A stretch of 64,000 bases of DNA from a virus. Taxonomy: Duplodnaviria; Heunggongvirae; Uroviricota; Caudoviricetes. The notes beneath the pieces are model-generated. The model saw nothing but the letters and a program-made list of their open reading frames with translations. It did no database searches and was not told the DNA's origin. Position numbers and translations under genes: made by a program. Below are positions 4,145 to 57,269 of this stretch, piece after piece. The stretch lies in the IMG/VR virus record IMGVR_UViG_3300042544_003430. One strand, given 5' to 3'. Numbering within the stretch: the first letter of the stretch is position 1; each line of letters opens with the position of its first letter.

Positions 4145-5029
4145 ATGAAGCACCTACAAACTTATCGTCGATTTGAATCTCAGCATGCCCTGAATGAAGG
4201 GGATGAATATCGCAAGATGAACATGGACTACCTCTTGAACAAATTTACTCGAGTTCCAAACAACGGGAAGTTGTACAACCCTTCGGAGGAAGACTTTGCA
4301 GATCTGCCTTGGTATCAAGCCTTGAAGGGGGCATTTCCAGATTTCAAACTGGAGAGGGTCAGAAAGAAAGGGAATGGCTACTCTTGGTTCTTCCCTGGGC
4401 CAAAACCCAAACCTCAGGCTTTCTACGAGGTTTTCAGAGAAGGTGACAGAGACTCCCCCTCTGAAGAGCCGGCCAAGATTGTATTCAACAACGATTTAAT
4501 GACTTCATCTCAGACGTTCACAATTTTACTCAACGATAAAGAGTCTTGGAATGAGCTCTTTAAGCTGCTCTATTTTGCCCAGTTTGAAGGAAAAATATCA
4601 GGACCTACTTGGAGGGGATTAAAACACATTATGGAACTCTTCTCTTCGGATTTGGAGTCTTTTTACAAGACCGGAAATCTGGGAATAGTTGGAGTGAAAA
4701 AGGATTGCAACCCTTATGGAGGACACTACGAGTCCTCAGTTGATTTTCTGAAGAACCTTCCTTATGGCATCTTTGATGATCTGAAGGCTGGATTTGTCAA
4801 GAAGATGAAAGAAGATCCTGCGGAGATTCAGTATGCAATTTCTCAGTGTCAACTTCCGAAAGGAACAGCAGAGACCGTATTTGGCACAGCTAGACTCTAC
4901 CCAGAAAATGAGGTGCTGAACTTCTACAATCTGATGAAGCAAGAAGGTTATGTTCCACCGGCCGGATTTGACGAAGAAACTGGGGAAATTTCAGATATAC
5001 ACAAATCTCTAGGGGACATCGGTCTGTAG
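4145..5029 (+). CDS. MKH/VGL family protein (C-terminal ...LGDIGL)
   Basis: N-terminus MKHLQTYRRFES, C-terminus SLGDIGL, paralogous to neighbours. Confidence 0.5.
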   Translation: MKHLQTYRRFESQHALNEGDEYRKMNMDYLLNKFTRVPNNGKLYNPSEEDFADLPWYQALKGAFPDFKLERVRKKGNGYSWFFPGPKPKPQAFYEVFREGDRDSPSEEPAKIVFNNDLMTSSQTFTILLNDKESWNELFKLLYFAQFEGKISGPTWRGLKHIMELFSSDLESFYKTGNLGIVGVKKDCNPYGGHYESSVDFLKNLPYGIFDDLKAGFVKKMKEDPAEIQYAISQCQLPKGTAETVFGTARLYPENEVLNFYNLMKQEGYVPPAGFDEETGEISDIHKSLGDIGL

Positions 5030-11643: not shown

Positions 11644-14600
11644 ATGGCTCAAAAGTATTTGAGCAAAGCTTTGGCTTTCGCTTTAACCTTGTTTGCAACA
11701 CAAGGAAATCTTCATGCAGCATGCGGGAATCTCACACCGAGTTTCAGTAATGCATCCAACAAAACCTGTGGTATACCTCAGGTAATTACACTTACCAATA
11801 CTTCCACTGGAAACAGTCGAAATGTAGCCACCTACAAGTGGTATGTGGGTACCACACTGCTGAGCACACAAGTTGGCAAATCCACCCAAAAATACACCAT
11901 CAACACTGCAGGTAGCTATACCTTCAAGTTGGTGGCGATAGATACGGGTAAGGTGGGCTGTAAAGACAGCACAAGCACTACCATTACCATTTCGGCATCT
12001 GTTCCGAGAATTTTGGATGGCAATAGAGTAAATACCTATTCTCCCATTTGGGAAAATTGTATAAGTTCATTGGGGGTTCCTGACACCTTTGGTATAAATA
12101 TCAAACCTCAGGATTCATTGCGAAATTACACCATAGTTTGGGGGGATGGCACCGGTAATTCTACTGGCACTTTACTGCTTAGCAGCCAATCCCTCTACCA
12201 TAAGTATAATTCACTAGGACAATTTACTTTATTAATCATCGGAACAAAGGGAAGTTGCACTGATACCCTTCGAGGTGTGGTGTCGAATGAAAGAAATCCT
12301 GTGGCTGGAATTGTGGGTCCACCAACAGGAACCAATGCAGGTTGTGTGCCCATTCGCATGCGTTTTATCAATAACTCTTCCTTAAGCTCACCTAGCACCA
12401 CTTTTACCTGGGATTTTGGCAATGGCGAAACCATAGTAAGGGGATTCAATACCCACAAAGACACTTTATTTTATACCTATAAGCGCTTTTTGTGTAATGG
12501 CATCGTGAAACTTACTCAAACCAATAATTGTGGTTCGAGTTTTGCCACCTGGAACCCAATCATGGCTTCCTCTAAGGATACTGCCATTATTGCGCCGACC
12601 AATCCGACCAACTGCGATCTTGCTGTACCTTTTACGTTTAACAATACCTCTCAAAATCGTTTTTGTAGCACGCCAAACAATAAGAAATACCTCTGGGTTT
12701 GGGGCGACGGAACCAATTCTGGTTGGAGTACTTCTTCTGCTTCGCAGTCTAAAACCTACAGCAAGCGCGGTGTGTACCAGGTCTTGCTGATTGATTCAAA
12801 TGGCTGCGGTAAAGATACTGCAAGGTATACCTTGCGTATCGATAGCATGCCTACCATTTCTGCAGGCCCAGCGTCGGCTGCAGGATGCTCACCTTTGGTG
12901 GTAAACTTCAGAGACAACAGCATAAATGCAACTTCTAGAAATTGGGATTTTGGATATGCAACACCAACAAGCAGTGCGCAAAACCCAACCCATACCTATC
13001 AAACAGGTGGTACATATAGAGCAGTGCTGACAGTAGCCAACAATTGTGGATCATTAAAAGATACTGTCCTTATTACTGTCAAACAAAAAGTAAAGGCAAA
13101 CTTCAATACACCGCTTACTGGCTGTGCTCCATTAACACAGAAATGGACCAATACATCTGTCAAAGGATTGGCAGGAACCCCTACATATTTCTGGGATTTT
13201 GGGGACGGAACAACTTCTACCCAGGTGAATCCTCCAGATAAAACTTACTCTACGTTAGGGACATATACCATTACACTCATTGCTACAGACTCATGCGGTA
13301 AGGATACCATTAAAAAGACGTTTACCGTCCGTGGTAAGCCCTCTGCTACAATTACTTTGTTATCTTCAAGCCGGTGTGTGGGCAGCACTTTAGATATTCG
13401 CTTTGTAACCTCACCCGTAAATACAGCTTCAGTTATCTGGGGTGATGGAACCAATGGCAGCAGTTATTTCGGATTGGGTGGTTCAGTTGACCGCACGGTT
13501 TCCAGAAAATACGACAGTCTGCGCACCTACAGATTTGGGGTAGTTATGGTGGATCCAAGCGGTTGCCGAGACACCAATTACCTAAACATTGCAATGGATC
13601 CAAGGCCTACGATGAACTATACCTACACCACAACCAATGGTTGTGGTCCTTTGGATGTTACATTTACCAATACCAGTGCGCACAATGGAGGGGGTAACAT
13701 CAACCAAATGAAGTTCTTATGGAACTTTAGTAATGGTATATTGGCTTACAGCAAAGATACTGCAGCTAGGTTCTTGCCGTTTAAAACAAGAGACTCTATT
13801 TATCCCGTTAAATTAATTGGAACAAACGCCTTTGGCTGCAGAGATTCCATTACCAAAACGGTTCGAGTTTATCCAAAACCATTGAGTAAATTTAGTATTA
13901 GTGAAAAGGATGGTTGTGCACCTTTGGATATTACTACTACGAACAATTCTACTCCATATGACACGGGTTCTATAAACATAATGAAGTTTATATGGGACTT
14001 TGGCAACGGCAGGAAAGCGTTTGGTAAAGATACTGCTGCTCGATTCTTAGCCAGTAAAACAAAAGATACTGTGTATACTGTTAGTCTGATATCTATTTCT
14101 GAACATGGTTGCCGAGATACCAGTTCAACCACAGTGCGTATTTATCCAAAACCTAAAGCCTTATTTACCAGAAGTAAAACTGAAGGTTGCAAACCACTCG
14201 GGGTTACCTATGTCAACCAAAGTGTACCCTACGATACCGGCAATATATCAATAATGAGTTTTGCTTGGGATTTAGGAAATAGAATTACCTCATTCGCTAC
14301 AGAACCTGTGGGTATCTATAATGATGCGATAAACAAAGATACTACTTATAAGGTACGTTTGATTGCCACTAGTGAGCACGGATGCAAGGATACTGCAAAT
14401 TCCACTGTACTGTTACATCCGAATCCGGTGATTAAATTTGATATGAGCCGCACCAATGGCTGCGGTCCATTGCCTGTGAGCTTCTCGAACAAGAGCATCA
14501 ACGGCGATGCATTTACTTGGGAGTTTGGCGTATATGGAACTGATACCGCAAAGAGTCCTAGTAAGGTATTCTATGGCCGCGATATTTTTGACTCAGTAGT

Positions 14601-16737
14601 AGTGGTGAAGCTTAGCGCGATGAGCAAATTTGGCTGCTTGAGTGATACGCTAAAAGACGAAGTGACGGTTTTTGGATTACCTATTGCCAACTATCTAGTT
14701 TCAACAGATACCTTCTGTTTCCCTGACCTGACGCAGTTTTTGAACCAAAGTTTGGCTTCCTACAACTACACTTGGGATTTGGGCGATGGCACTGTAACAG
14801 GAACTACAAACCCCAAACATTTCTTCAAGAAAAGCTCAAGTCCATTTAGTGATACTACCTATTTCATCAAACTTGTTGCTACAAGCCCTTACGGATGTAA
14901 GGACACCGCAAACGGCAGTATGACCGTATTGCCTTACCCTATTCCAAAATTCAGTGTTGACAATCCTGCGGGTTGTGCGTCACACACAGTGAAGTTCAAC
15001 AACCAGTCGGTAAACGTGTTGAATTACCTGTGGGTATTTGGAGATGGATATACATCAACCGATGTGAACCCTACCCATACCTTTATAAATACCGGTGCGA
15101 ATGATACGGCGTATCAGGTTGTTCTTTATACCTACTCTTTGGATTGTGTAGACTCTACTAGTATTTGGATACCAGTTTACAAGCCCTCGTATTCATTCTT
15201 CAGAACGGACCGGGTAAATCCATGTGATGCTGGATATTTTAAATTCCAGAGCTTTGGCGAAAATGCGCCAATTGTGAAGTACAATTTTGGTGATGGTAGC
15301 ACATCAACTTTTCCCAACCTAACGCATTTATTCCCAACCTCACCTTACACCGATACAAGCTTCATCGTTACACTATACACCACAAGCAATCGCGGTTGCA
15401 CAGACAGCTTTAAACGCACAGTTACGCTCCCACAGCGACTTTCTATCGGAATGAAAGACACCAGTTATGCGCTATGTGCTCCGACGGTAATTCAGTTTAC
15501 AAACTACACAAGGGGTGCACGCACATATATTTGGGACTTTGGAGATAATGGAGGAAGTTCTCAGAAGAACCCAATTTATGAATACCAAAAACCGGGCTTA
15601 TACGCATATAAGTTGTTTGCCTTTGACGCAAATGGGTGTATTGACAGTCAGGTTTCAAACGGCACTGTTCGTGTGGATGTGAGTCCTAAAGCGGATTTTG
15701 ACTTTAGTCCTGGTAAAGGCCGCATGCCAAATGACAACCGTATTTTCTTTACTGACAAGAGCCGCAGTGTGATACCACTGACCTATTTCTGGGATTTCTC
15801 GGATCCAGCGGGTATACCTGCAACGAGTACGATTCAAAATGCAACCCACGATTTTAGCGACTCTGGAGACTATAAAATCTGTTTGACGGTAGATAATGGG
15901 GGTTGTAAGAATATATTTTGCAATTTTGTACGCATCGATCCGGCATTTCCAACCCCAGATTTCTCGGTGGGTGGGGATTCGGGTTGCCCACCTCTTACCG
16001 TGCAGTTTACCAACCTTTCTGTGAACTCTGACCGCTATATATGGTTCTTTGGTGACGGTGAAAGAAGCGAGGACAAAGACCCAGTCCATACCTATAAGTA
16101 CAGCGGATATTACGACGTGATTTTGATCGCAAAAGGTCCAGGGGGTGAGGGTAAAACGGAGAAGAAGCAGTTCATAAAAGTATTGAATGCACCATTCACG
16201 TATTTCAATCTCACGCCCTCTATATTGTACCTTCCTGATGCCAAATTCACAACTCGAAACCTGACTACTGGAGCTGTAGGATATCAGTGGAATGTGTACA
16301 ACAGCAGCACTAGAAATCGAGTTGGGAATAGCCTTTTGGTGAATCCCTATTTCCAAGTAAACGATACGGGGCATTATGATGTGGAATTGATTTCAGTAAG
16401 CAGTCAGGTCTGTTATGATACCCTATTGTTGCCCAAGCCCATCTACGTGAATCCACGTGGCATATTGCATGTACCGGATGCCTTCACACCTACCAATGAT
16501 GAACGCAACGATGTGTTTAAACCAAGCGCGATAAACGTGCAAAAGGATTTCTATCTCTTCCAGATCTATAACAGATGGGGTGAAATCGTATTCGAAACCA
16601 AAGACCCCGATGAGGGTTGGGACGGCCGTAAAAAGGGCAAAATATGCCAAAGTGGAGTCTATGTATATAAAATCAATGCAAGACTCTTCAGCGGGGATGA
16701 TATTTCAGCGGATGGTGTGGTTCACTTGATTCGATAG
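11644..16737 (+). CDS. giant secreted PKD-repeat protein with Bacteroidota type-IX secretion (gliding-motility) C-terminal domain
   Basis: Signal peptide. Many repeats of the form W(D/V)FGDG..S....P.H.Y...G.Y.V.L (PKD-like). C-terminus VPDAFTPTNDERNDVFKP...YNRWGEIVF...DPDEGWDGRKKG...GVYVYKI resembles the T9SS type-B CTD. Confidence 0.7.
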   Translation: MAQKYLSKALAFALTLFATQGNLHAACGNLTPSFSNASNKTCGIPQVITLTNTSTGNSRNVATYKWYVGTTLLSTQVGKSTQKYTINTAGSYTFKLVAIDTGKVGCKDSTSTTITISASVPRILDGNRVNTYSPIWENCISSLGVPDTFGINIKPQDSLRNYTIVWGDGTGNSTGTLLLSSQSLYHKYNSLGQFTLLIIGTKGSCTDTLRGVVSNERNPVAGIVGPPTGTNAGCVPIRMRFINNSSLSSPSTTFTWDFGNGETIVRGFNTHKDTLFYTYKRFLCNGIVKLTQTNNCGSSFATWNPIMASSKDTAIIAPTNPTNCDLAVPFTFNNTSQNRFCSTPNNKKYLWVWGDGTNSGWSTSSASQSKTYSKRGVYQVLLIDSNGCGKDTARYTLRIDSMPTISAGPASAAGCSPLVVNFRDNSINATSRNWDFGYATPTSSAQNPTHTYQTGGTYRAVLTVANNCGSLKDTVLITVKQKVKANFNTPLTGCAPLTQKWTNTSVKGLAGTPTYFWDFGDGTTSTQVNPPDKTYSTLGTYTITLIATDSCGKDTIKKTFTVRGKPSATITLLSSSRCVGSTLDIRFVTSPVNTASVIWGDGTNGSSYFGLGGSVDRTVSRKYDSLRTYRFGVVMVDPSGCRDTNYLNIAMDPRPTMNYTYTTTNGCGPLDVTFTNTSAHNGGGNINQMKFLWNFSNGILAYSKDTAARFLPFKTRDSIYPVKLIGTNAFGCRDSITKTVRVYPKPLSKFSISEKDGCAPLDITTTNNSTPYDTGSINIMKFIWDFGNGRKAFGKDTAARFLASKTKDTVYTVSLISISEHGCRDTSSTTVRIYPKPKALFTRSKTEGCKPLGVTYVNQSVPYDTGNISIMSFAWDLGNRITSFATEPVGIYNDAINKDTTYKVRLIATSEHGCKDTANSTVLLHPNPVIKFDMSRTNGCGPLPVSFSNKSINGDAFTWEFGVYGTDTAKSPSKVFYGRDIFDSVVVVKLSAMSKFGCLSDTLKDEVTVFGLPIANYLVSTDTFCFPDLTQFLNQSLASYNYTWDLGDGTVTGTTNPKHFFKKSSSPFSDTTYFIKLVATSPYGCKDTANGSMTVLPYPIPKFSVDNPAGCASHTVKFNNQSVNVLNYLWVFGDGYTSTDVNPTHTFINTGANDTAYQVVLYTYSLDCVDSTSIWIPVYKPSYSFFRTDRVNPCDAGYFKFQSFGENAPIVKYNFGDGSTSTFPNLTHLFPTSPYTDTSFIVTLYTTSNRGCTDSFKRTVTLPQRLSIGMKDTSYALCAPTVIQFTNYTRGARTYIWDFGDNGGSSQKNPIYEYQKPGLYAYKLFAFDANGCIDSQVSNGTVRVDVSPKADFDFSPGKGRMPNDNRIFFTDKSRSVIPLTYFWDFSDPAGIPATSTIQNATHDFSDSGDYKICLTVDNGGCKNIFCNFVRIDPAFPTPDFSVGGDSGCPPLTVQFTNLSVNSDRYIWFFGDGERSEDKDPVHTYKYSGYYDVILIAKGPGGEGKTEKKQFIKVLNAPFTYFNLTPSILYLPDAKFTTRNLTTGAVGYQWNVYNSSTRNRVGNSLLVNPYFQVNDTGHYDVELISVSSQVCYDTLLLPKPIYVNPRGILHVPDAFTPTNDERNDVFKPSAINVQKDFYLFQIYNRWGEIVFETKDPDEGWDGRKKGKICQSGVYVYKINARLFSGDDISADGVVHLIR

Positions 16738-23401: not shown

Positions 23402-24931
23402 ATGTTTAAATGTAATTCACTATTCTACACAGACGGCTACAAAATTGGCCACAAAAGAATGCTAGCACCAGGAACAACTCGTTTATACGGAACCTGGATT
23501 CCACGAAGTATTAAACACGCTCCAAAAGGAGTTAAAAAAATCGTATCGTTTGGCCAGCAACTAGCTGTTAAATGGTTACACGATGAATTCGAAGAAAATT
23601 TCTTCAAGCTTCCTTTAGAAGAAGCAATGGAATTCGGAAATGATATGGCAATGTATCTCGGCCTCGAGTATGATGCTTCTCATTTCGAAGCTCTCCACAA
23701 ATTAGGTTACTTGCCTATCAAAGTTAAATCTTTACCAGAAGGTATCGAAACTCTTCCAAATGTTCCACACATGACCTTCATTAATACCGTGGATGGATTT
23801 GCTTGGTTAACCCTTTATTTGGAAACCATCATCTCTTCATTAGCTTGGAAGCCTTCAACATCAGCTACAATCGCTTTACAGTACAAAAGAAACCTGATCG
23901 AATGGGTAAGAAAAACAGACCCTAAAAACATCTGGTTAGTTCCTTTCCTAGCTCACGACTTCTCGGCTAGAGGTTTGTCTCCTTGGGACATGTTAGCAAG
24001 CGGTTTAGGACACGCTACATCATTCAGAGGTTCAGACACAATAGTTTGTATCCCAGCAGCTCGATACTTCTACAACGAGCCTAAAAACGAGGTCTGCATC
24101 AATTCTGTAAACGCTTCAGAACACTCAGTATCTACCACCAAAATTTTCACAGTCGGCGAACAACAAATGATAGCAGACTGGTTAAGAGAATTCGACAAAG
24201 GTATCCTTTCAATCGTTTCAGACACATTCGATTTATGGACACTAATCACCAAATATTTACCTGCCAACAAAGAGGCTATCATGGCCAGAGACGGTAAATT
24301 GGTTATCAGACCTGACTCAGGAGACCCAGTAGATATTATTTGCGGATTAGAAAATAAAGTTCTTGAGGAAGGAGTGGGATATAAAGAAGAATACAAAGAA
24401 AGCCCAGAATACAAAGGAGTTATCGAATTACTTTGGGACATCTTCGGAGGTACAATCAACGAAGAAGGTTACAAAGTACTTGATCCTCACATCGGAGCAA
24501 TCTACGGGGACTCTATTACCTTGGACAGACAAATCCAAATCTACGAAAGATTAGCAGCTAAAGGATTTGCAACTACCAATATCGTTTTAGGTATCGGTTC
24601 TTACACCTACCAAATGAACACCAGAGACACCTTAGGCTTCGCAGCTAAAGGAGCATGGTTCGAAGTAGAAGAAAACGGTACTAAAGTAGGCTACGACATC
24701 TACAAAGATCCTATCACAGACGATGGAACTAAGAAATCCTTAAAAGGACTTATTAGAGTCGATGAAGTTTCAGTAACTTCCGAGGAAACTGGAATTACTT
24801 ATACTAAGTATGAAGTAAAAACCCAATGTACCCCAGAACAAGAAGAAGGAGGCATCTTACAAACCATCTACGAAAATGGTAAATTCTACAATCAAACTAC
24901 ATTAACTGAAGTTAGATCAAAATTAAACTAA
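23402..24931 (+). CDS. nicotinamide phosphoribosyltransferase (NAMPT/NadV) family protein
   Basis: FYTDGYKIGHKRM, SFRGSDT and VIRPDSGDP match NAMPT signature regions. 509 aa. Confidence 0.85.
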   Translation: MFKCNSLFYTDGYKIGHKRMLAPGTTRLYGTWIPRSIKHAPKGVKKIVSFGQQLAVKWLHDEFEENFFKLPLEEAMEFGNDMAMYLGLEYDASHFEALHKLGYLPIKVKSLPEGIETLPNVPHMTFINTVDGFAWLTLYLETIISSLAWKPSTSATIALQYKRNLIEWVRKTDPKNIWLVPFLAHDFSARGLSPWDMLASGLGHATSFRGSDTIVCIPAARYFYNEPKNEVCINSVNASEHSVSTTKIFTVGEQQMIADWLREFDKGILSIVSDTFDLWTLITKYLPANKEAIMARDGKLVIRPDSGDPVDIICGLENKVLEEGVGYKEEYKESPEYKGVIELLWDIFGGTINEEGYKVLDPHIGAIYGDSITLDRQIQIYERLAAKGFATTNIVLGIGSYTYQMNTRDTLGFAAKGAWFEVEENGTKVGYDIYKDPITDDGTKKSLKGLIRVDEVSVTSEETGITYTKYEVKTQCTPEQEEGGILQTIYENGKFYNQTTLTEVRSKLN

Positions 24932-25006: not shown

Positions 25007-26929
25007 ATGACAATCCAATTAGCTTTAAGCTACGCATGGGTATTAATCCCGCTCCTAGCAATTGTGTTTTACAAATTCACATTGCGAGTATTCTTCGGTA
25101 TGATCATCATCCCGGAAGACAAAATCGGTCTAGTTACAAAGAAATTCGTTCTCTTTGGTTCTAATAGATCTCTACCAGACGGTAAAATTATCGCACTTAA
25201 TGGAGAAGCAGGTTTCCAAGCAGATCCATTAGCTCCTGGTTTGTATTGGTTCTACTGGGTATGGCAGTATTCTGTCGATGAAGCTTCATTAACCGTTATC
25301 CCACAAGGAAAAATTGGTCTATTATCAGCTAAAGACGGTAATCCACTTCCAACCGGTTCGATTTTAGCCCGTCACGTAGAATGTGATAATTATCAGGATA
25401 CCAGATCTTTCTTAACACAAGGTGGACAAAGAGGTAAACAGGTAGGTTATCTTAACAACGGTGTATATCGTATTAACACTTTCTTATTTGACATCTCAGT
25501 TACTGAAATCACTTATATCGAAGATGGAATGGTAGGTGTAGTAACAGCTTTAGATGGTATTCCACTAGGTCCAGGTAGCATTGCAGGTAACCAAATCGAA
25601 GGTCACAACAACTTCCAGGACTTTGATAAATTCTTAGGAGCCGGCGGTCAAAGGGGTTTACAGACTCAAGTTATCCAGGCAGGTTCTTACTCACTTAACC
25701 CTTGGGCAGTAGAGATTGAGAAAAAAGAAATGACTCAAATTCCTATCGGTCACGTTGGGGTAGTAATCTCATTCGTTGGAGAAGAAGGAGTAGACACAAG
25801 TGGAGAGACCTTCAAACATGGTAATATCGTTAAGAAGGGTCAAAGAGGGGTATGGGCAACACCATTAGATCCAGGTAAATACGCAATCAACCCTTACACT
25901 CAAAAAATCGAGATCGTACCAACCACTAACTTGGTTCTTAACTGGGCAAATGCTCGTAACGAATCTCACAATCTGGACAAGAACTTAAGTACAATTACAG
26001 TTCGTTCCAAAGACGGTTTTCCATTCAATATCGATGTATCTCAGATCATCCACATACCAGCAAATGAAGCACCCAAGGTAATCGCAAGATTTGGATCAAT
26101 GGCTAACCTAGTATCTCAGGTTCTAGAACCAACGATCGGTAACTACTTCCGTAACTCTGCACAAGACTCAGATGTTATTGCTTTCTTGGCAACTCGTCAG
26201 CAACGTCAAAATGCGGCCAAAGACAATATTTCTAAAGTATTGGATGAATACAACGTTCATGCAGTAGATACACTAATTGGGGATATCGTTCCCCCTGAAT
26301 CTCTAATGAAAACCCTAACCGATCGTAAGATTGCACAGGAAGAAGAGATAACATTCGAAACTCAACGTAAAGCCCAAGACCAACGTAAGACTTTACAGTC
26401 AGCTAAAGCTCTAGCAGATATGCAAGGAGAGATGGTAAAAGCACAACAGTCAGTTGAAATTGCACAACGTGAAGCAGAAGCAGCAGTTAAGAAATCTGAA
26501 GGATCTGCTAAAGCGTTAGAATTAACCGCTGGTGGTAACGCTAAAGCTCTAGAATTAAAAGCTAATGCAGAAGCTAAAGCTAAGAAAGTAATGGCAGAAG
26601 CAGAAGCCCAACAAATCAAATTGACCGGTGAAGCTCAAGCTTTATCTATCGAGGCAATTGGTAAATCAACAGCCGAGTCTTACAGATTACAAGTAGAAGC
26701 AATGGGAGGCGACAACTTTGCTAACTTCAAAATCACTGAAGCAATCGGAGAAAACAAAATCAAAATTATCCCTGAATTCCTAATCGTAGGAGGTAACGGA
26801 GAAGCTAACCCAATGTCAGGACTATTAGGCCTTGAATTACTTAAAAAGTTCCAAGGTAAAGACCAAGACAATTCGGTTAAAACGATCGAGGTTAAATCAG
26901 AGGTTAAAGAAGAACCTAAAAAGAAATAA
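25007..26929 (+). CDS. SPFH/band-7 (flotillin-like) membrane protein
   Basis: N-terminal TM helix and a long Ala/Glu/Lys-rich coiled-coil tail, as in flotillins. Confidence 0.45.
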   Translation: MTIQLALSYAWVLIPLLAIVFYKFTLRVFFGMIIIPEDKIGLVTKKFVLFGSNRSLPDGKIIALNGEAGFQADPLAPGLYWFYWVWQYSVDEASLTVIPQGKIGLLSAKDGNPLPTGSILARHVECDNYQDTRSFLTQGGQRGKQVGYLNNGVYRINTFLFDISVTEITYIEDGMVGVVTALDGIPLGPGSIAGNQIEGHNNFQDFDKFLGAGGQRGLQTQVIQAGSYSLNPWAVEIEKKEMTQIPIGHVGVVISFVGEEGVDTSGETFKHGNIVKKGQRGVWATPLDPGKYAINPYTQKIEIVPTTNLVLNWANARNESHNLDKNLSTITVRSKDGFPFNIDVSQIIHIPANEAPKVIARFGSMANLVSQVLEPTIGNYFRNSAQDSDVIAFLATRQQRQNAAKDNISKVLDEYNVHAVDTLIGDIVPPESLMKTLTDRKIAQEEEITFETQRKAQDQRKTLQSAKALADMQGEMVKAQQSVEIAQREAEAAVKKSEGSAKALELTAGGNAKALELKANAEAKAKKVMAEAEAQQIKLTGEAQALSIEAIGKSTAESYRLQVEAMGGDNFANFKITEAIGENKIKIIPEFLIVGGNGEANPMSGLLGLELLKKFQGKDQDNSVKTIEVKSEVKEEPKKK

Positions 26930-27033: not shown

Positions 27034-27513
27034 ATGGCAAAAGTAATCAAACCAACAGACTCAGATCAAGAAGTAGAATTTTATCCGGCAGTATTTTTAG
27101 CAGGATCCATCGAAATGGGAAAAGCTGAAGACTGGCAAAAAACAGTTGAGAAAGAATTAGAAAAATTAGACGTTACAATTTTTAATCCTAGAAGAGATGA
27201 CTGGGATAGCTCATGGACTCAAGAGCAATCTAATCCACAATTTAATCATCAGGTTAATTGGGAGTTGAACAAATTGGAAAGATGTGATGCCATCTTCATG
27301 TACTTCTCTCCAGAAACACAATCTCCAATATCTCTACTAGAACTAGGAAGATATTCCACATACGGAAAAATGATTGTTTGTTGTCCTAAAGGATTCTGGA
27401 GAAAAGGAAACGTAGATATCCTTTGCACCAGAGAAAATATTCCAGTATTTGAGGATCTACAATCTGCTATCGGGGCTTTGAAAACTAGAATCAACCAACA
27501 AATAATAGATTAA
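27034..27513 (+). CDS. Rcl/DNPH1-like 2'-deoxynucleoside 5'-phosphate N-hydrolase / nucleoside 2-deoxyribosyltransferase family protein
   Basis: VFLAGSIEMG and LLELGRYS motifs typical of the family. Confidence 0.55.
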   Translation: MAKVIKPTDSDQEVEFYPAVFLAGSIEMGKAEDWQKTVEKELEKLDVTIFNPRRDDWDSSWTQEQSNPQFNHQVNWELNKLERCDAIFMYFSPETQSPISLLELGRYSTYGKMIVCCPKGFWRKGNVDILCTRENIPVFEDLQSAIGALKTRINQQIID

Positions 27514-28041: not shown

Positions 28042-28773
28042 ATGTTTAAATTTTATGAAGTTGGAGGAAAAATAAGAGACGAAATTTTAGAATTATCTTC
28101 TAAAGATGTTGATTATGTAGCAGTTCCGAAAGAAGAATTACTAGATACAGTTGAGAAGGCAGAAGATATGTTCAGCATGTTAGAATCTTTTCTAAGAGTA
28201 GAAAAATTTGAGATCTTCTTGGTAACCCCAGACTGTTTTACAATTAGAGCAAAATTCCCAGCAGGACACAAATACTCAGGGGTTGCAGACTTTGTAATGG
28301 CCAGAAAGGAAATTGGTTATATTCCAGGAACTAGAACCCCAATTGTTAAGCCGGGAACCCTATTTGACGATCTTCAGAGAAGAGATTTTACCCTAAACGC
28401 TTTAGCAAAAGACGAGGACGGAACCATAATCGATTTCTTTGGAGGAATAGAGGATCTAAAGAAAAACCGTTTAAAAACTCCACTAGACTGCAAAATAACT
28501 TTTGATGACGATCCGCTTAGAATTCTTAGGGCCATCAGATTTTGTATAACTAAAGGGTTTTGGATTGGACCCTATATGGACGGGGTAATTCAGGATTACG
28601 ACTACGAAGGAAAAATGGGGGTAGTTTCTATGGAGAGAATAAGAGAAGAATTGTTCAAATGTTTCAAACACGATACATTAAAAACCCTCAAAACACTTCA
28701 CGAATACCCAGCCCTAAGAAACTACATTTTTGAAAAAAATACACTTTGGTTAAAACCCACAATGGAGCAATAA
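28042..28773 (+). CDS. tRNA nucleotidyltransferase (CCA-adding)/poly(A) polymerase head-domain protein, minimal form
   Basis: YEVGGKIRDEILE...KDVDYVAV (Pol-beta NTase head) and the hallmark RRDFTLNAL motif. Only 243 aa. Confidence 0.65.
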   Translation: MFKFYEVGGKIRDEILELSSKDVDYVAVPKEELLDTVEKAEDMFSMLESFLRVEKFEIFLVTPDCFTIRAKFPAGHKYSGVADFVMARKEIGYIPGTRTPIVKPGTLFDDLQRRDFTLNALAKDEDGTIIDFFGGIEDLKKNRLKTPLDCKITFDDDPLRILRAIRFCITKGFWIGPYMDGVIQDYDYEGKMGVVSMERIREELFKCFKHDTLKTLKTLHEYPALRNYIFEKNTLWLKPTMEQ

Positions 28774-28778
28774 AATAT

Positions 28779-29465
28779 ATGATTTACGTATCAATAGACA
28801 TCGAAACTACAGGACTAAATCCTGAAACTTGCCAAATCCTTTCTATAGGAGCAGTTATAGAGGACACTCAAAAACAATTGGCTTTCGAGGAAATTCCGAA
28901 ATTCCATTGCGCAATACTGAAAAATGAAAGGGATATAATCTCCGGTGAGATTTATGCTTTGAATATGAATAGGGATTTGATAGAAAGCATCACCTACTAT
29001 TCTACAGCTAAAGATCAAGATGAAAAGAATGATCTAGTTCATTTTACAGGAATGCAGTTTGTTAGAGAAGAAGATATTGCAGAACATTTTTTCCAATTCC
29101 TTTATCGGAACGGATTCAAGCCAAACGAGTCTGATCTACCCCTGAATAAAAAAATTAAAATAATAAATGGAATATCTTATCCTGTTTTGGATTCTTCTGT
29201 AAAGCCAATCACCATAAATGTAGCTGGGAAAAATTTCTCTGGATTTGATAGAAAATTTCTAGATTTACTTCCTAGATGGAAGCAACTAATCAGAACAAGA
29301 AGTAGAGTTATAGATCCAGGTGTATTGTTTGTAGACTGGGAAAATGATGACGCAGTTCCTTCTTTAGATTCCTGCAAAAAAAGAGCACTAATAGAAGGAG
29401 TGGTTACCCATAATGCTTTAGAGGATGCTTGGGATGTTATTCAAGTCTTAAGAACAAAATACTAA
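28779..29465 (+). CDS. DEDDh 3'-5' exonuclease (DnaQ/RNase T-like)
   Basis: Exo I motif IDIETTGL and Exo III motif HNALEDA. Start set at MIYVSIDIE, immediately after the upstream stop. Confidence 0.6.
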   Translation: MIYVSIDIETTGLNPETCQILSIGAVIEDTQKQLAFEEIPKFHCAILKNERDIISGEIYALNMNRDLIESITYYSTAKDQDEKNDLVHFTGMQFVREEDIAEHFFQFLYRNGFKPNESDLPLNKKIKIINGISYPVLDSSVKPITINVAGKNFSGFDRKFLDLLPRWKQLIRTRSRVIDPGVLFVDWENDDAVPSLDSCKKRALIEGVVTHNALEDAWDVIQVLRTKY

Positions 29466-30049
29466 TGAAAATAATCTATTTAGACATAGACGGAGTTCTT
29501 AATTGTGAAAAAGCATACCGAGATGGATTTTGCAAATATCAAGAATGGCCAGATACCAAAAGGGAGGATGGTAAAAATTACCACCAGACTTTTTATCCCC
29601 CGGCTAAGGACCTTCTAAATAAGCTTATTCTAGAAACAGGTGCTAAGGTTGTTGTCTCTTCTACCTGGAGACATTCGGGTTTAGAATTTATTAAAAACGT
29701 TTGGACTCAAGAGAAAATGGAAGGAGAAATCATAGGGATAACCCCTTCCTTTAGAGGAGACATTGAAGGGTATACAATTCCTAGAGGATGTGAGATTGAA
29801 TATCACCTTGAAAAAGAATTAGGATTTCATCACATCAATTGGGACAAAGACACTCAGCAAGAATATATTGACAAATCTAACGTCGATAATTACATTATCA
29901 TAGACGACGATTCAGATATGTTGTACACGCAAAGAAATCATTTTGTTCATGTCTTACCTTCTCCTAGGAACAAAGAGGGATTTAACGAAAAATATTTTGA
30001 AGAAGCACTAAAAAAATTATCAAAAACAGTTATAGATTTGAACTACTGA
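29465..30049 (+). CDS. HAD-family phosphatase (polynucleotide 3'-phosphatase PNK3P-like)
   Basis: IIYLDIDGVL (DxDGV motif I) and KVVVSSTW (motif II-like). TAATG overlap with the upstream gene. Confidence 0.45.
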   Translation: MKIIYLDIDGVLNCEKAYRDGFCKYQEWPDTKREDGKNYHQTFYPPAKDLLNKLILETGAKVVVSSTWRHSGLEFIKNVWTQEKMEGEIIGITPSFRGDIEGYTIPRGCEIEYHLEKELGFHHINWDKDTQQEYIDKSNVDNYIIIDDDSDMLYTQRNHFVHVLPSPRNKEGFNEKYFEEALKKLSKTVIDLNY

Positions 30050-30058
30050 CCGTATATT
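30050..30058 (+). promoter_or_regulatory. motif A 21 nt upstream of the tRNA-like gene
   Basis: ctgaCCGTATATTtaaatgtaac, the same motif that precedes protein genes. Confidence 0.5.
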
Positions 30059-30078
30059 TAAATGTAACAAAAACAAAT

Positions 30079-30162
30079 GCTCTGAGAAATTAATTTGACA
30101 TTGGTAGTCAAGCCAGCTTCTAAACCTGGTTTTTAGGGGTTCGATACCTCTTCAGAGCACCA
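30079..30162 (+). tRNA. noncanonical tRNA-like gene, putative amber suppressor (anticodon CUA), with encoded CCA
   Basis: Perfect 7-bp acceptor stem (GCTCTGA/TCAGAGC), discriminator A plus CCA. T-arm AGGGG-TTCGATA-CCTCT. D-arm TGAC-ATTGGTA-GTCA. Anticodon stem GCCAG/CTGGT with loop cttCTAaac (U33-CUA-A37 if a C.C closing pair is allowed). Irregular: 10 nt instead of 2 between acceptor and D stems. Confidence 0.45.
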
Positions 30163-30203
30163 AAGATGAAACTTTTAAAACAAAAAGATATATAATAAAC
30201 AAT

Positions 30204-30566
30204 ATGAAATAGATTAACAAATTTCAAGAAACAAAACTGGTAACTATTACCAGATCCGATATCCATCCAGGATATCAAATTCCTCAAACTGCTCACTCTA
30301 TCGCAGATTTTGCATACGAGCATCCGGAAGCATTTAAAGAATGGAAAGAGACATCAAACTCTGTCATCTGCTTATCCGTACCATCAGAGGAAAAACTACT
30401 CGACCTTTATTCAAAATTATCAGGACAAACTCCGACGACCAAGTTCTTCGAGCCTGACATCAACCAATGGACTTCTATCTGTTTATACGGAAGCCCCGAG
30501 GTTAGGAAAAAACTTTCACATTTACCATTAGCACTTAAAAAAATCGAAGACTATGTTATAGATTAA
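30204..30566 (+). CDS. PTH2-family peptidyl-tRNA hydrolase with in-frame amber (TAG) at codon 3
   Basis: ATG AAA TAG ATT AAC..., then a 117-codon open frame KLVTITRSDIHPGYQIPQTAHSIADF...FKEWKETSNSVICLSVPSEEKLL...FFEPDINQWTSICLYGSP. This matches PTH2 ([25 protein letters not shown]...QWEY...KVVVKA...[21 protein letters not shown]). No other ATG in frame. Confidence 0.55.
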
Positions 30567-30585
30567 TAACAAGAAAGAACTACTT

Positions 30586-31137
30586 GTGGCCATGAAATCT
30601 TGTCCACAAACAGAAACCCAATCTGTTCTAGATCACGGATTTTCTGTTAAGAATTACCTATTCGATCTTCTGGATCATTTAGAAAAAGGAACCCCTTTGA
30701 AGTTCGAATGGAAACTTCCAGAATGGATCTACGAGGAGAAAGAATTTATTCTTAAGACCTTACCCTCAAGACAAACTTTAAAGATATACACGGTGTTTCA
30801 CGACTGTGGTAAGCCTCAGTGTTTAACCATCGACGAGGAGGGCAAAAGACACTTCCCTAATCACGCAGAGGCTTCGTACAATACTTTCATCAATCTCTTT
30901 GATGATAATGCAGCAGCGGACTTAATACGCAGAGATATGGACATTCATTTACTTAAGTCCGAAGGTGTATCTGACTTCTGTAAAAATCCCAATGCAATAG
31001 CATCTTTAATTACTGGACTTGCAGAGATTCACTCTAACGCTGAAATGTTTGGAGGGATCGAGAGCACTAGCTTTAAGATTAAGTGGAAGTGCATCTCCAA
31101 GAGAGGAAAACAAATTATTCAAACCATAAAAAAATAA
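30586..31137 (+). CDS. possible HD-domain phosphohydrolase
   Basis: LDHGF...TVFHDCGKP...NHAE residues resemble an HD motif arrangement. Confidence 0.3.
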   Translation: MAMKSCPQTETQSVLDHGFSVKNYLFDLLDHLEKGTPLKFEWKLPEWIYEEKEFILKTLPSRQTLKIYTVFHDCGKPQCLTIDEEGKRHFPNHAEASYNTFINLFDDNAAADLIRRDMDIHLLKSEGVSDFCKNPNAIASLITGLAEIHSNAEMFGGIESTSFKIKWKCISKRGKQIIQTIKK

Positions 31138-31141
31138 AAAA

Positions 31142-31771
31142 ATGACAACAAAAGAATTTATCAAAATGCTCCAAGATGCAGATCCTACAGGGGAATCACA
31201 CATCAGAATGGAAGGAGGGATCCCGATGTACGCAGAAAGAAAACCAGGTTACTGGGATGGACCTTACAGTTACTTCGACGAGGAGGGAAACTGGGTGTAT
31301 AGCACAGGGGCATCTAAAGTAGACATCTACTGCGTAGACAGATATGACTATGTGTCTGATATGTTCAGCACTTATAATATTCCTACTTGGGAAGAAGTCC
31401 TTTCTAAGTTTAAATTTAGCCTGGGGTATTCTATTGAATCTCAAAGAAAAGAAAGAGAAGAGGGTAGTCTGAAGGATGCCAAAGAATCTTATGAACACTC
31501 GGTTGAGATGCATCAAAGATTTAGAAAAGAAGGAGAAGAACTGGCATTATCTAGATCGGAAAAGGGATGGACTTGGTTTCAGAATAAGTTGGTAGACGAC
31601 ACTTCTCTTAGACCAAACATGCACCACTACTATACCTGGATAGCTCTGGACGAGAATGGAAAGGATCAGGGATCTAATCTTCATAACGTCGAAGCAGTTT
31701 ATAAGTCAGGTCTATTTGAAAAACACGACAATGGAGTCAAAAAAGGCTATTACCAATGGATAAAAAAATAA
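31142..31771 (+). CDS. hypothetical protein (209 aa)
   Basis: ORF only. Confidence 0.4.
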   Translation: MTTKEFIKMLQDADPTGESHIRMEGGIPMYAERKPGYWDGPYSYFDEEGNWVYSTGASKVDIYCVDRYDYVSDMFSTYNIPTWEEVLSKFKFSLGYSIESQRKEREEGSLKDAKESYEHSVEMHQRFRKEGEELALSRSEKGWTWFQNKLVDDTSLRPNMHHYYTWIALDENGKDQGSNLHNVEAVYKSGLFEKHDNGVKKGYYQWIKK

Positions 31772-44794: not shown

Positions 44795-46924
44795 ATGACT
44801 GAAAACAATATAATTGGAGAGAACTTATTGGGAGATATCTTATACACTCCTCCTAAAATTTCAATGGGACCTATCGATGACGATGATATTGATGATGTTC
44901 CAAGCTACAAATCTAATCCAACCTCTTCAACCACTCCTGCCCTAGATTCTTTTAGCAGGGATTTAACAGCTCTAGCTGCAAAGGGAGAACTTGATCCAAT
45001 TGTAGGAAGAGATTCTGAGATCGAAAGAGTTTCTCAAATTCTAGGTCGTAGGAAAAAGAACAATCCAGTTCTAATAGGGGAACCCGGGGTTGGTAAATCA
45101 GCAATTGCCGAAGGACTAGCACTTAGAATTTTCCAAAGAAAGGTTTCTAGAAATCTACTAAATAAGAGAGTAGTTAGTTTGGATATGGGTCTAATTGTTG
45201 CCGGAACTAAATACAGGGGTCAGTTTGAAGAGAGAATGAAGTCCATTATGGATGAGCTAAGAAAAAATCCAGATGTAATTATTTTCATCGATGAATTGCA
45301 CACTCTAGTTGGTGCCGGTGGTTCATCAGGATCTTTGGATGCTTCTAACATGGTAAAACCTGCACTAGCAAGAGGGGAATTTCAATGTGTTGGAGCAACA
45401 ACTCTAAATGAATATAGACAGTATATCGAGAAAGACGGAGCACTAGAAAGAAGATTTCAAAAAGTTATCATTGAAGCTCCAACTGCAGACGAGACAATTA
45501 TAATTCTAAACAATATCAAGGCTAAGTACGAGGATCATCATAATGTTCAATACACTGACGATGCTATCATCAATTGTGTTAAGTTAACAGAAAGATACAT
45601 TACCGACAGAAACTTCCCAGACAAAGCTCTAGATGCTTTAGACGAAGCGGGTAGCAGATCTCAATTAACCCAAGTTAAGGTTCCTGATGCATTGGTTAAT
45701 TTAGAGAAGAATCTAGAGAAAACTACAGAGGAGAAAAAGAAGTGTGTTACCAAACAGGACTATGAAGGAGCTGCCAAATATAGAGATCTGGAAAGAAAGA
45801 TTAAAGCTGGCATCGAATCGGAAACTAAAGCCTGGGAGCAAAAGCTAAAAGAGAAGAAGAAAATCGTAGACGGTGAAAAAGTTGCTGAAGTAGTTTCTTT
45901 GATGACTGGGATTCCTCTACAAAAGATCAGTCAGGACGAAAACGAAAGACTTGCTAAAATGGCTGAAGCTTTAAGAGATAGAGTTATTGGACAAAATGAA
46001 GCAGTTGAAAAAATATCAAAGGCAATTTTAAGAAATAGAATCGGTTTAAAAGACCCAAATCGTCCAATCGGATCATTTGTTTTTCTAGGACCTACCGGAG
46101 TTGGTAAAACCCAATTGGCTAAGGAATTGGCTAAAATGGTATTCGGTGATGCCGATGCAATGATTAGAGTTGATATGTCCGAGTACATGGAGAAATTCAA
46201 TTCAACCAAATTGATTGGAGCTCCTCCAGGATATGTTGGACACGAAGATGGTGGTCAATTAACAGAGAAAGTTAGAAGAAAGCCATATTCAGTAGTTCTA
46301 TTTGACGAGATTGAAAAGGCCCATCCGGATATTTTCAACTCTCTATTACAAATTCTAGACGAGGGTATGATTACCGATGGATTAGGAAGAAAGATTAATT
46401 TTAAAAATTGTTTAATCATCTTGACTTCTAACGTTGGTCAAAGAAAGGCTGCCGAATTTGGAGGAGGTGTAGGATTCAAATCTTTAGATAAGAGCAATGT
46501 GGAAAAAGAATCAAAGATCACGATCAGAAAAGAATTGGAAAAAACTTTCTCTCCGGAATTTCTAAACAGAATAGATGAAATTATAAACTTTAATTCTCTA
46601 ACTCAAGATGATCTAATTAAGATTATAGACGTTGAAATTAAAAAGATGACTCCGAGATTTGAAGATCTAGGGTTTAAATTAGTCATCTCTAAGGATCTAA
46701 AAGAAAAGATAGCAGAAAGAGGATATGACCCCAAATTTGGAGCAAGACCTCTGAAAAGACTTCTTCAAAAATATATCGAAGACACTATTGCAGAGCTCTT
46801 TATCCAAAAGAAAGTTGAATCAGGTTCTAAGATTACTCTATCCCTAGATTCTTCCAAAGATGCTGAGATCGAACCCCCAGTAAAGGTAAGAATCACAAAT
46901 CCAAAAAAGGGCTCAGAAGAGTAA
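44795..46924 (+). CDS. ClpC/ClpA-like double-AAA+ chaperone ATPase lacking Clp_N repeats
   Basis: D1 IGRDSEIERV...LIGEPGVGKSAIAEGLA. UVR-like KQDYEGAAKYRDLERK. D2 FLGPTGVGKTQLAKELA. C-terminal ClpB_D2-small-like region. Confidence 0.8.
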   Translation: MTENNIIGENLLGDILYTPPKISMGPIDDDDIDDVPSYKSNPTSSTTPALDSFSRDLTALAAKGELDPIVGRDSEIERVSQILGRRKKNNPVLIGEPGVGKSAIAEGLALRIFQRKVSRNLLNKRVVSLDMGLIVAGTKYRGQFEERMKSIMDELRKNPDVIIFIDELHTLVGAGGSSGSLDASNMVKPALARGEFQCVGATTLNEYRQYIEKDGALERRFQKVIIEAPTADETIIILNNIKAKYEDHHNVQYTDDAIINCVKLTERYITDRNFPDKALDALDEAGSRSQLTQVKVPDALVNLEKNLEKTTEEKKKCVTKQDYEGAAKYRDLERKIKAGIESETKAWEQKLKEKKKIVDGEKVAEVVSLMTGIPLQKISQDENERLAKMAEALRDRVIGQNEAVEKISKAILRNRIGLKDPNRPIGSFVFLGPTGVGKTQLAKELAKMVFGDADAMIRVDMSEYMEKFNSTKLIGAPPGYVGHEDGGQLTEKVRRKPYSVVLFDEIEKAHPDIFNSLLQILDEGMITDGLGRKINFKNCLIILTSNVGQRKAAEFGGGVGFKSLDKSNVEKESKITIRKELEKTFSPEFLNRIDEIINFNSLTQDDLIKIIDVEIKKMTPRFEDLGFKLVISKDLKEKIAERGYDPKFGARPLKRLLQKYIEDTIAELFIQKKVESGSKITLSLDSSKDAEIEPPVKVRITNPKKGSEE

Positions 46925-56450: not shown

Positions 56451-57266
56451 ATGAAGAAAAAAATAGCATTGGTGACAATGGCAAAAGATGAAGACTTGTA
56501 TATTCAAGAGTGGATCGATTATCATTTGAAATTAGGATTTGATAGTATATTCATCTATCAAAACAATTGGAGATTTAATAGTGAAGACTTGGATGAAAGA
56601 GTTCATCTTTTAGAGTGGGATATAGATTCCCCAGGTGATATGGATAACACCCCATGGTTATCAAATAGAATTGCTATGGCTTACACTCATTTTGGAAAAA
56701 CATATCACGATCAATTTGAATGGGCTGCTTTTATTGATGTCGACGGGTTTCTGGTATTGAAGCAAACGAACGATGTCAAAGAGTTTATTGCTAAATTTGA
56801 CAACGTTCCCCAAAGACAAGTTGTAATCAATCTAGCACAATTTGGTGATAATGGTCATACCGAGTTTGATCCGAACAACGCAAGTGTATTGGAAAGATTT
56901 ACTAAAAGATGGGGTAAACCTTATACTCACACCTACTATCATGTTGGACCAATATGCAAATTACACGAAAACTTTGATAAGCATGGGGTTCATATGGTAC
57001 ACGATGAAGAATGGATTGATGTAGATGGTGTAGTAGGCATAGGTACTTCAACTATTTTGAATTGCTCAAGAAAGGTATCATACGATACAGCACAACTAAA
57101 CCACTATTATACAAAGACTCTACCAGAATGGCTTAATAAATGTAATAGAACTCGTCCAGAGGGTGATCAGTATAGGAGTACGATTGAAGGTTTTTTTGAA
57201 CACAACCACAACGATGTAGAAGACTTTCATGCTTTAAACTTTTTTAGAAATCAACAAACTTTGTAG
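56451..57266 (+). CDS. GT92/DUF23-like glycosyltransferase
   Basis: KIALVTMAKDEDLYIQEWIDYHLKLGFDSIFIYQNN resembles the GT92 N-terminal signature. Confidence 0.4.
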   Translation: MKKKIALVTMAKDEDLYIQEWIDYHLKLGFDSIFIYQNNWRFNSEDLDERVHLLEWDIDSPGDMDNTPWLSNRIAMAYTHFGKTYHDQFEWAAFIDVDGFLVLKQTNDVKEFIAKFDNVPQRQVVINLAQFGDNGHTEFDPNNASVLERFTKRWGKPYTHTYYHVGPICKLHENFDKHGVHMVHDEEWIDVDGVVGIGTSTILNCSRKVSYDTAQLNHYYTKTLPEWLNKCNRTRPEGDQYRSTIEGFFEHNHNDVEDFHALNFFRNQQTL

Positions 57267-57269
57267 ATT

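Follow-up and report, generated by a model that had tools for sequence, protein, structure and literature searches.

A probable amber-gated translational module for two putative tRNA 3'-end enzymes beside a non-canonical tRNA(CUA) gene in standard-code phages

Phages that have reassigned the amber codon carry suppressor tRNAs within 'code change modules' (Borges et al., bioRxiv 10.1101/2021.08.26.457843), and the use of code 15 has been validated (PMC9523058). In these recoded phages many TAGs are spread across late and lysis genes, TAG is lost as a stop codon, and the in-frame stops have been proposed to make expression depend on prior expression of the suppressor. Here we describe a related arrangement in a 64,000-nucleotide (nt) stretch of DNA, hereafter the window, from a tailed virus of the class Caudoviricetes (IMG/VR record IMGVR_UViG_3300042544_003430). 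It consists of a tRNA gene with the anticodon CUA, a gene for a protein like peptidyl-tRNA hydrolase 2 (PTH2) and a gene for an HD-domain-like protein, the latter two each interrupted by an in-frame TAG close to the start codon. As in the recoded phages, a phage tRNA(CUA) would decode in-frame TAG, expression would depend on prior suppressor expression, and low-G+C phages of Bacteroidota are concerned. Unlike in the recoded phages, TAG stays a normal stop here, a single TAG stands at codon 2-8 of two genes for tRNA enzymes, its position is conserved across very distant phages, and the tRNA is often of a non-canonical type in which the 12-base-pair (bp) acceptor branch is split 8/4.

Autoregulatory recoding is familiar from Escherichia coli, where prfB, encoding release factor 2 (RF2), holds an in-frame UGA and infC, encoding initiation factor 3 (IF3), starts at AUU. 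As in these genes, an early in-gene recoding signal would tie a translation-related protein to the activity of a component of translation; prfB uses a +1 frameshift that senses RF2 itself, whereas a plain in-frame amber as found here would need a separate, dedicated tRNA gene. Natural 8/4 and 9/3 allo-tRNAs, among them phage 8/4 tRNA-Ser and tRNA-His, were described by Mukai et al. 2017 (PMC5389517); their 8+4 acceptor branch has the 12 bp that EF-Tu recognises, they function together with EF-Tu and the ribosome, and in E. coli natural 8/4 tRNAs support translation. The tRNA studied here shares with them the 8/4 instead of 7/5 division and the phage origin, and some of them also bear nonsense anticodons; unlike them it has no long variable arm and, in the window copy, no 6-bp D stem with tetraloop as in tRNA-Sec, and it combines an 8-9 nt linker, a mismatched loop closure and A73 with a CUA anticodon throughout. 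As to the enzymes, Iyer et al. 2021 (PMC7824862) described an RNA-repair toolkit of jumbo phages with PTH2, a CCA-adding enzyme, 'Swiss-army-knife' HAD phosphatase, Pnk and RNA ligase, proposed to restore tRNAs damaged by host nucleases. The protein families and the kind of phage are the same here; suppressor tRNAs, the in-frame TAG, the HD partner and an amber-started PTH2-HD fusion are not described there. In synthetic circuits (PMC7969014), an early amber and a separately expressed suppressor tRNA form an AND gate that removes leaky expression; those circuits are engineered, and the present locus would be a natural, evolutionarily conserved counterpart, if the gating is true. Conceptually it is thus a variant both of phage suppressor-tRNA-dependent expression (Borges et al.) and of the autoregulatory recoding seen in prfB, confined to two genes of otherwise standard-code genomes. 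We found neither this tRNA family nor an amber in PTH2 or HD genes of phages described in the literature on phage stop-codon recoding, the comparative genomics of jumbo phages, the announcement of the pT24 genome, and Bxz1 with its suppressor tRNA, although this coverage is incomplete and earlier work is possible.

Our analysis leads us to propose an amber-gated translational module, in which synthesis of the PTH2-like and the HD-like protein is probably gated by a dedicated phage suppressor tRNA(CUA). The PTH2-like gene (30204-30566, + strand) begins ATG AAA TAG ATT AAC, with the amber codon at 30210-30212, and runs on through 117 sense codons to a TAA. Not one ATG, GTG or TTG occurs in these 117 codons. 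The product scores 24.0 bits against PF01981 (cut-off 23; E = 4.9e-5), a match that covers only the N-terminal two thirds, a profile comparison with the PDB matches it to Pth2 2zv3 (E = 1.7e-4), and it has the Pth2 fold. The invariant residues of the family are H28, D32, E80-P81-D82 and T87, and the lysine of the archaeal Pth2 motif G-K-G-K aligns with G-Y-Q. The reading of this frame in the original prediction, an uninterrupted PTH2-like frame behind ATG-AAA-TAG, stands on a profile match above the cut-off.

The 3' end of this gene is overlapped by the HD-like gene (30553-31137, + strand). A pattern search found its start as a second ATG-NNN-TAG-ATT-AA, in frame, at 30553: ATG TTA TAG ATT with the amber codon at 30559-30561, followed by 191 sense codons. 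The original prediction had listed an HD-domain candidate here and had missed this amber start. Against the Pfam HD profile the protein scores 13.7 bits, below the cut-off of 22 (E = 0.078); the open reading frame (ORF) 30592-31137 nonetheless shows the HD fold with the invariant H...HD...H...D metal ligands, and the protein is homologous to the HD domain at the C-terminus of class II tRNA nucleotidyltransferase. The 11 residues from the TAG to the first internal methionine, INNKKELLVAM, are conserved in relatives and are modelled as a helix with a predicted local distance difference test (pLDDT) value of about 96. PTH2-like and HD-like domains are fused in phrog_14850, in Tenacibaculum phage pT24 and in three further related loci (L152, L154 and L163; such labels denote individual loci), and because of these fusions we regard the two as functionally linked. 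In bacterial CCA-adding enzymes, the HD domain acts on tRNA ends as a 2',3'-cyclic phosphodiesterase and as a phosphatase. Both the PTH2-like and the HD-like protein plausibly clean tRNA 3' ends.

The position of the amber codon was compared in relatives drawn from IMG/VR contigs of 16-508 kb, ENA and Logan assemblies, five uncultured megaphage genomes of 462-735 kb and the cultured jumbo phage pT24. An in-frame TAG lies 0-6 codons after an in-frame ATG in 31/31 distinct PTH2-like genes, in 14/14 stand-alone HD-like genes and in 4/4 fusions, so the expectation that homologous phages would carry a TAG near codon 3 was borne out, and CUA tRNAs adjoin the genes in most lineages. No PTH2-like or HD-like start without TAG was found in the collected set, and a replacement by CAA or CAG was never seen (45/45 TAG). 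Where database proteins show Q at this position, this comes solely from gene calling with code 15, the underlying DNA being TAG. The distance from ATG to TAG is always a multiple of three, and the base 3' of TAG is always a purine; the following codon is mostly ATT, with ATA, GTT, GTA and AAA in L012, L137, L151, pT24 and L176. A purine after UAG reportedly is the context best suppressed in E. coli, as found in 1983 by Bossi and by Miller and Albertini. Across about 24 related loci, a single internal stop within the first 12 codons is TAG in 36 genes, TGA in 3 and TAA in 3; in L012 and L015 internal TAG is confined to the PTH2-like and HD-like genes. In databases, an internal methionine has been taken as the start of most HD-like family members (1907 hits).

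Mobile elements were seen exactly at the amber gate in three relatives. In L163 (4011-4988) an HNH homing-endonuclease ORF begins ATG..ATG TAG ATT AAG and ends at the TAG of the gate, in L137 (5487-6290) an endonuclease-like ORF lies in frame 5' of the HD-like gene, and in L001 (4841-4990) two copies of ATGATGTAGATTAAT enclose a structured insert of some 90 nt. These insertions suggest a hotspot for insertion at the start of the gated genes. The recurrent string TAGATTAA was also considered as a DNA motif or mobile-element target and rejected, the other copies in the window being unrelated.

TAG otherwise keeps its standard meaning. The window has a G+C content of 37%, ATG-initiated ORFs in the standard code cover 91.5% of it, and among 82 genes 64 end with TAA and about six real ones with TAG, including the three (1617-2417, 4145-5029 and 11644-16737) from which the original prediction had argued, correctly, that the in-frame TAG is a local feature. 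An ATG followed after 0 to 4 codons by TAG and a long ORF occurs in the 64 kb only at the PTH2-like and HD-like genes. The complete genome of pT24 (234,670 bp) gives the same picture: it is 90% coding in the standard code with intact structural genes, TAG ends 33/271 genes, and the only convincing N-terminal in-frame TAG is that of the PTH2-HD fusion at 194083 (ATG AAA TAG ATA). The annotated start of this gene, gp293 (NC_049383.1 194218; L164 6091), lies 135 nt downstream of the ATG at 194083.

The third member of the module is the 84-nt tRNA gene at 30079-30162 on the + strand, with an 8-bp acceptor stem, a 4-bp T stem, a discriminator A and an encoded CCA. Its 7-nt anticodon loop, UUCUAAA (U33, C34-U35-A36, A37), is closed by a C.C mismatch, and in its D arm the stem comprises 5 bp and the loop 7 nt. 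Standard programs do not recognise it: ARAGORN reported 0 tRNA genes across the whole 64 kb, the Rfam tRNA model (RF00005) gave a local match of 16.9 bits against a gathering threshold of 29, and the single-sequence fold is a cloverleaf of modest significance (z = -2.4). BLAST of the tRNA against the phage collection returned no match. A relaxed cloverleaf scan of the loci encoding PTH2-like relatives found homologous same-strand genes with a CUA anticodon in most of them, and 16 homologous genes were aligned. In this alignment 93.9% of cells are paired and changes on both sides occur in 22/25 pairs; none of 500 shuffles reached the observed values, and sliding the partners reduced pairing to 45% or less. 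Since covariation in 16 homologues supports the fold, we do not count the failures of ARAGORN and Rfam as a refutation, and the tRNA-like gene that had been proposed from a single sequence is upheld even though the tRNA finders make no call. From its sequence family, 30079-30162 is a real tRNA element under structural selection and not a decayed relic.

The same alignment places it in an 8/4 non-canonical family and not with canonical suppressor tRNAs. The pair 8:74 is kept in 16/16 members with four pair types, while the canonical fifth pair of the T stem (58:74) is possible in 2/16. The linker from acceptor to D stem is 8-9 nt long (usually 2) with the conserved sequence R-A-R-N-T-T-A-A-T, the variable region measures 4-6 nt, the D loop has GG, the T loop is a normal GTTCGAN and the discriminator is A73. 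The anticodon loop YUCUAAA is conserved in 16/16; the loop-closing position is a C.C or C.A mismatch in most members, leaving a 9-nt open loop, and G-C in L012 and L141. A 6-bp D stem with a 4-nt loop occurs only in L015 and L016. A 3-bp helix between linker and variable region (columns 10-12 with 54-56) covaries from A-U to G-C and is short and tentative; a 4-bp helix from linker to variable loop, first drawn by eye on four sequences, held no single register and was dropped. Under a covariance model of the family, members reach 69-97 bits (84.3 for the window copy), whereas ordinary tRNAs do not exceed 41. The window copy ends in an encoded ACCA; most relatives end in ...ACAA and would need a CCA-adding enzyme. 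An identity as tRNA-Pyl or tRNA-Sec was rejected in view of the normal T loop, the D-loop GG, the missing long variable arm and the 12-bp acceptor branch, and so was an initiator-like tRNA(CUA) starting at UAG: an in-frame upstream ATG is always present, positions 1 and 72 form a G-C pair, and a run of three G-C pairs is missing from the anticodon stem. A scan of the collection with CTTCTAAAC-N(10-14)-GGTTCGA proved useless for finding the family, as 112/120 matches were ordinary tRNA-Arg(UCU).

In most lineages the gated genes have a CUA tRNA, of one kind or another, within about 6 kb. Members of the non-canonical family or short variants of it occur on the same strand within 5 kb in the window and in about 18 lineages. 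The 8/4 type is found in the window and in L002, L003, L006, L008-L012, L014-L016, L139, L141, L151 and L160, at distances of 33 nt to 3.4 kb from the PTH2-like gene. Shorter CUA tRNA-like genes stand about 230 nt 5' of the PTH2-HD fusions in L152, L154 and L163, and a canonical tRNA(CUA) is found within 1-2.6 kb in L137, in pT24 (annotated 'tRNA-Sup') and in LR756500 and LR756501. The tRNA types that adjoin gated genes thus differ, and what they have in common is the CUA anticodon.

Further unusual tRNA-like genes were noted near the module (L002 963-1046; L010 2687-2774; L006 2074-2147 and 2386-2472; L008 1311-1392; L164, that is pT24, 3905-3983 and 4272-4350; L137 900-973). Such clusters in related phages include calls with misplaced anticodons and one tRNA with an 8-nt anticodon loop (UUAG), and two 'tRNA-Undet' genes of pT24 have an anticodon stem of about 9 bp and a 5-nt loop. 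In cluster C mycobacteriophages, PTH2-like genes annotated as peptidyl-tRNA hydrolase are preceded in frame by ATG TAG GTG (Bxz1; L170, 1471-1479) and GTG TAG GTG (Myrna; L175, about 3971-3979). A tRNA(CUA), labelled tRNA-Ser in the Myrna record, lies 130-300 nt downstream (Bxz1 2157-2229; Myrna 4463-4534).

We propose the following mechanism. Ribosomes would start at the ATG at 30204 for the PTH2-like protein and at 30553 for the HD-like protein and would meet UAG at codon 3. If release factor 1 (RF1) acts there, only a di- or tripeptide would be released; if the tRNA(CUA) of 30079-30162 is present, matured and aminoacylated, it would decode UAG, and the full enzyme would be made. The inserted amino acid would by default be guessed as glutamine. 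The early position of the TAG would minimise waste, and the purine after UAG would favour suppression. In this way the output of two tRNA 3'-end enzymes, one a putative ester hydrolase of the Pth2 fold and the other a homologue of the HD phosphoesterase domain of CCA-adding enzymes, would be tied to the activity of a dedicated, otherwise dispensable tRNA. The original prediction had raised gating of PTH2 production by the adjacent CUA tRNA as one of two readings, and it is the one we favour, on strong comparative support and now with the HD-like gene included: the N-terminal TAG is universal, no usable start follows it, CUA tRNAs are linked to it in most lineages, and the sequence of pT24 points the same way. 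The other reading, a module that repairs or replaces tRNAs attacked by the host, fits the protein families, but its claim to novelty fails, because such sets in jumbo phages have already been described (PMC7824862).

Several other explanations of the ambers deserve consideration. That TAG is reassigned to glutamine throughout the genome (code 15), with the tRNA as the usual suppressor of a code change, would agree with the frequency of suppressor-tRNA recoded phages among low-G+C phages of Bacteroidota hosts, for which non-canonical suppressor tRNAs have been anticipated, with the Q at TAG in publicly called homologues and with a window that lacks structural and lysis genes, the class usually recoded. 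The termination of real genes by TAG in the window and in pT24, whose structural genes are intact in the standard code, speaks against it, as does the absence of mid-gene TAG from about 370 genes of related loci, barring read-through tails and spurious ORFs; moreover, free synonymous use would not give TAG at one N-terminal position in every gene and never CAA or CAG. We hold such a reassignment to be quite unlikely. It is still more improbable that ATG-NNN-TAG forms a two-codon leader, comparable to the bar minigenes of lambda, after which ribosomes reinitiate at AUU or another non-AUG codon. Minigenes have been linked to peptidyl-tRNA drop-off and to Pth, ATT follows TAG in most sequences, TAGATTAA recurs, and the TAG of Bxz1 and Myrna is followed by a GTG that has a good Shine-Dalgarno sequence. 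However, a start at AUU is rejected because GTT, GTA, ATA and AAA are also found after TAG, and reinitiation could not yield the PTH2-like protein of the window from a frame devoid of ATG, GTG and TTG. The HD-like residues between TAG and first methionine are predicted to form a confident helix, a further point against this reading. Reinitiation would explain neither the linkage to CUA tRNAs nor why the stop is TAG in all cases and TAA in none, given a genome with 37% G+C and TAA as the prevailing terminator.

The least improbable of the rivals, though unlikely in our judgement, is a read-through sensor that works without any phage tRNA, host near-cognate tRNAs reading TAG weakly depending on RF1; the tRNA-like RNA would then be a decoy or substrate for the PTH2 and HD enzymes or for a host nuclease, a part of this explanation to which we give the same low weight. 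With a purine behind it, an early TAG stands in a leaky context, nine lineages have no detected CUA tRNA nearby, and the tRNA has an unusual shape and only a predicted use in translation. On the other side, the CUA anticodon and its loop are invariant in an RNA that otherwise evolves fast, and non-canonical, short and canonical CUA tRNAs all keep the association. Because the anticodon is invariant and different tRNA types stay with the gated genes, we take UAG decoding to be the selected property. Finally, the TAGs could be sequencing errors or marks of pseudogenes and the tRNA a degenerate relic, as the missing tRNA calls of ARAGORN and Rfam and the pT24 annotation, which simply cut the gene short, might suggest. 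This is refuted by conservation across more than 40 sequences and has practically no probability left: independently assembled sequences from many samples and a cultured phage confirmed by Sanger sequencing all show the identical TAG, nothing else disrupts the ORFs, which are conserved and have folds modelled at high confidence, and compensatory covariation in the tRNA is strong.

Some observations weigh against gating by the tRNA(CUA). Its charging and its decoding of TAG are what we infer from sequence, and translation by a tRNA with a loop-closing C.C mismatch and a long linker, to which the standard tools give no call, is a prediction. No CUA tRNA was found within the 5-6 kb fetched and examined for nine lineages (L001, L140, L147, L149, L156, L157, L159, L173 and L174). 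In Bxz1 and Myrna a Shine-Dalgarno sequence 7 nt 5' of the GTG that follows TAG favours a start after the TAG, which may thus lie outside the ORF. The 64 kb of the window hold no structural genes, so that late genes elsewhere could be TAG-recoded. Lastly, the gate would close when tRNAs are damaged, just when repair enzymes seem most needed.

As for the purpose of amber gating by the tRNA(CUA), we would prefer a feedback or timer that sets the level of tRNA-end-cleaning enzymes by the maturation and charging of a reporter tRNA and that would operate within the phage toolkit for tRNA repair and counter-defence. It could act as a timer through expression of the tRNA, as feedback on the state of the reporter tRNA, or as negative feedback if the enzymes act on that tRNA. 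A bolder form of this proposal seems possible to us but doubtful. In it the tRNA(CUA) is a dedicated 'reporter' tRNA that serves no other coding purpose in the genome, and the ambers make a natural sensor and feedback loop by which enzyme synthesis follows the transcription, CCA maturation and charging of this tRNA in the infected cell, or else the enzymes deacylate or trim the tRNA so that suppression stays at a safe level. The circuit would, as tentatively, be ancient and widespread, reaching from Bacteroidota jumbo phages and megaphages of 460-735 kb possibly to cluster C mycobacteriophages; its concealment by gene callers that truncate the genes and tRNA finders that miss the 8/4 tRNA belongs to the same speculative picture.

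In the window the module is part of a stretch of five + strand ORFs and one RNA gene (28042-31137), which the original prediction had regarded as an island of six elements. All six exist where it placed them, with the peptide motifs it quoted. The first gene (28042-28773) encodes a short class II tRNA nucleotidyltransferase of the CCA-adding type, 243 aa with head and neck only, which matches the PolyA_pol head domain PF01743 (7.9e-16) and the PHROG family of tRNA nucleotidyltransferases phrog_24229 (4.5e-60); RRDFTLNAL is present, and the RNA-binding domain scores under the cut-off. It is followed by a DEDDh/RNase_T (RNase T-type) 3'-5' exonuclease (28779-29465; Pfam 2.2e-8; IDIETTGL and HNALEDA) and by a HAD_SAK_2 phosphatase, a 'Swiss-army-knife' RNA-repair HAD with the DxD motif DIDGVL (29465-30049; 8e-20; 72.1 bits against a cut-off of 27.5), both likewise on the + strand. 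As a unit, however, the island does not hold: a comparison of 28 related loci showed no homologue of these three genes in the roughly 5 kb around the module. They are real and thematically related neighbours that are not conserved with the module, and because they are missing beside it in those loci we define the conserved unit as tRNA(CUA), PTH2-like and HD-like gene. This core is often followed by a further family, represented in the window by a 209-aa ORF without Pfam or PHROG match (31142-31771, + strand). In 7 related loci this ORF stands directly 3' of the module, to which it may belong as an additional part.

Two kinds of promoter-like elements precede the genes of the module. The motif GACCGTATATT at 30048-30058 (+ strand) ends 21 nt 5' of the tRNA-like gene. 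It had been proposed as a phage promoter motif; the window has 13 copies where chance would give 1.4, and every copy is on the + strand, 15-35 nt 5' of a gene start (span 626-32124; for example at 626, 7862, 9374, 16787, 17155, 23372, 27555, 30048 and 32114). The motif holds a TAnnTTT core that resembles the Bacteroidota -7 promoter element, and it probably marks one class of promoters in this phage. A different element, TGAAAC-N17-TATATAATA (30167-30197, + strand), the only copy in the window, stands before the PTH2-like gene and ends 6 nt 5' of the ATG; elements of the type TGAAAC-N(13-19)-TATATAATA lie 5' of PTH2 orthologues in L003, L006, L008-L011 and L014. Only 4-7 nt remain between this element and the ATG in the window and in L003 and L006, and the PTH2-like mRNA may be leaderless or nearly so. 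The differing upstream elements hint at separate transcription classes for the tRNA and for the gated genes.

Other genes of the window were noted in passing. The product of the gene at 11644-16737 (1697 aa) contains many PKD repeats and carries a CHU_C type IX secretion signal at its C-terminus; it points to a Bacteroidota host whose secretion system would export the protein. Auxiliary genes lie up- and downstream of the module (23402-24931, 25007-26929, 27034-27513 and 44795-46924); among their kinds are a phosphoribosyltransferase of the NAPRTase family (nicotinate/nicotinamide), a 640-aa Band 7/SPFH protein, a nucleoside 2-deoxyribosyltransferase-like protein and a ClpB-type double AAA+ ATPase. 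The GT2 glycosyltransferase gene at 56451-57266 ends with TAG, and one codon further on in the same frame stands the ATG of a 2-oxoglutarate (2OG)-Fe(II) oxygenase gene (57270-58010), so that an active amber suppressor would fuse the two proteins. We considered the TAG-ended genes as programmed read-through fusions and abandoned the idea, since one in-frame pair (56451-58010) among six is compatible with chance.

If gating by the suppressor tRNA is true, it means that a virus with the standard code has a natural and conserved gene-specific control by a suppressor tRNA. Such a control would be the missing intermediate between standard-code phages that merely carry a suppressor tRNA and fully recoded phages, and it would account for the amber suppressor tRNAs of some standard-code phages. 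The 8/4 family with its long linker is missed by standard finders, and phage suppressor tRNAs are therefore likely to be under-counted. For annotation, pT24 gp293 and thousands of metagenomic HD-like and PTH2-like proteins that were called N-terminally truncated call for correction. For the biology of these phages, the gate would link enzymes of tRNA repair and counter-defence to a sensing device, with pT24 and its host Tenacibaculum as a cultured system.

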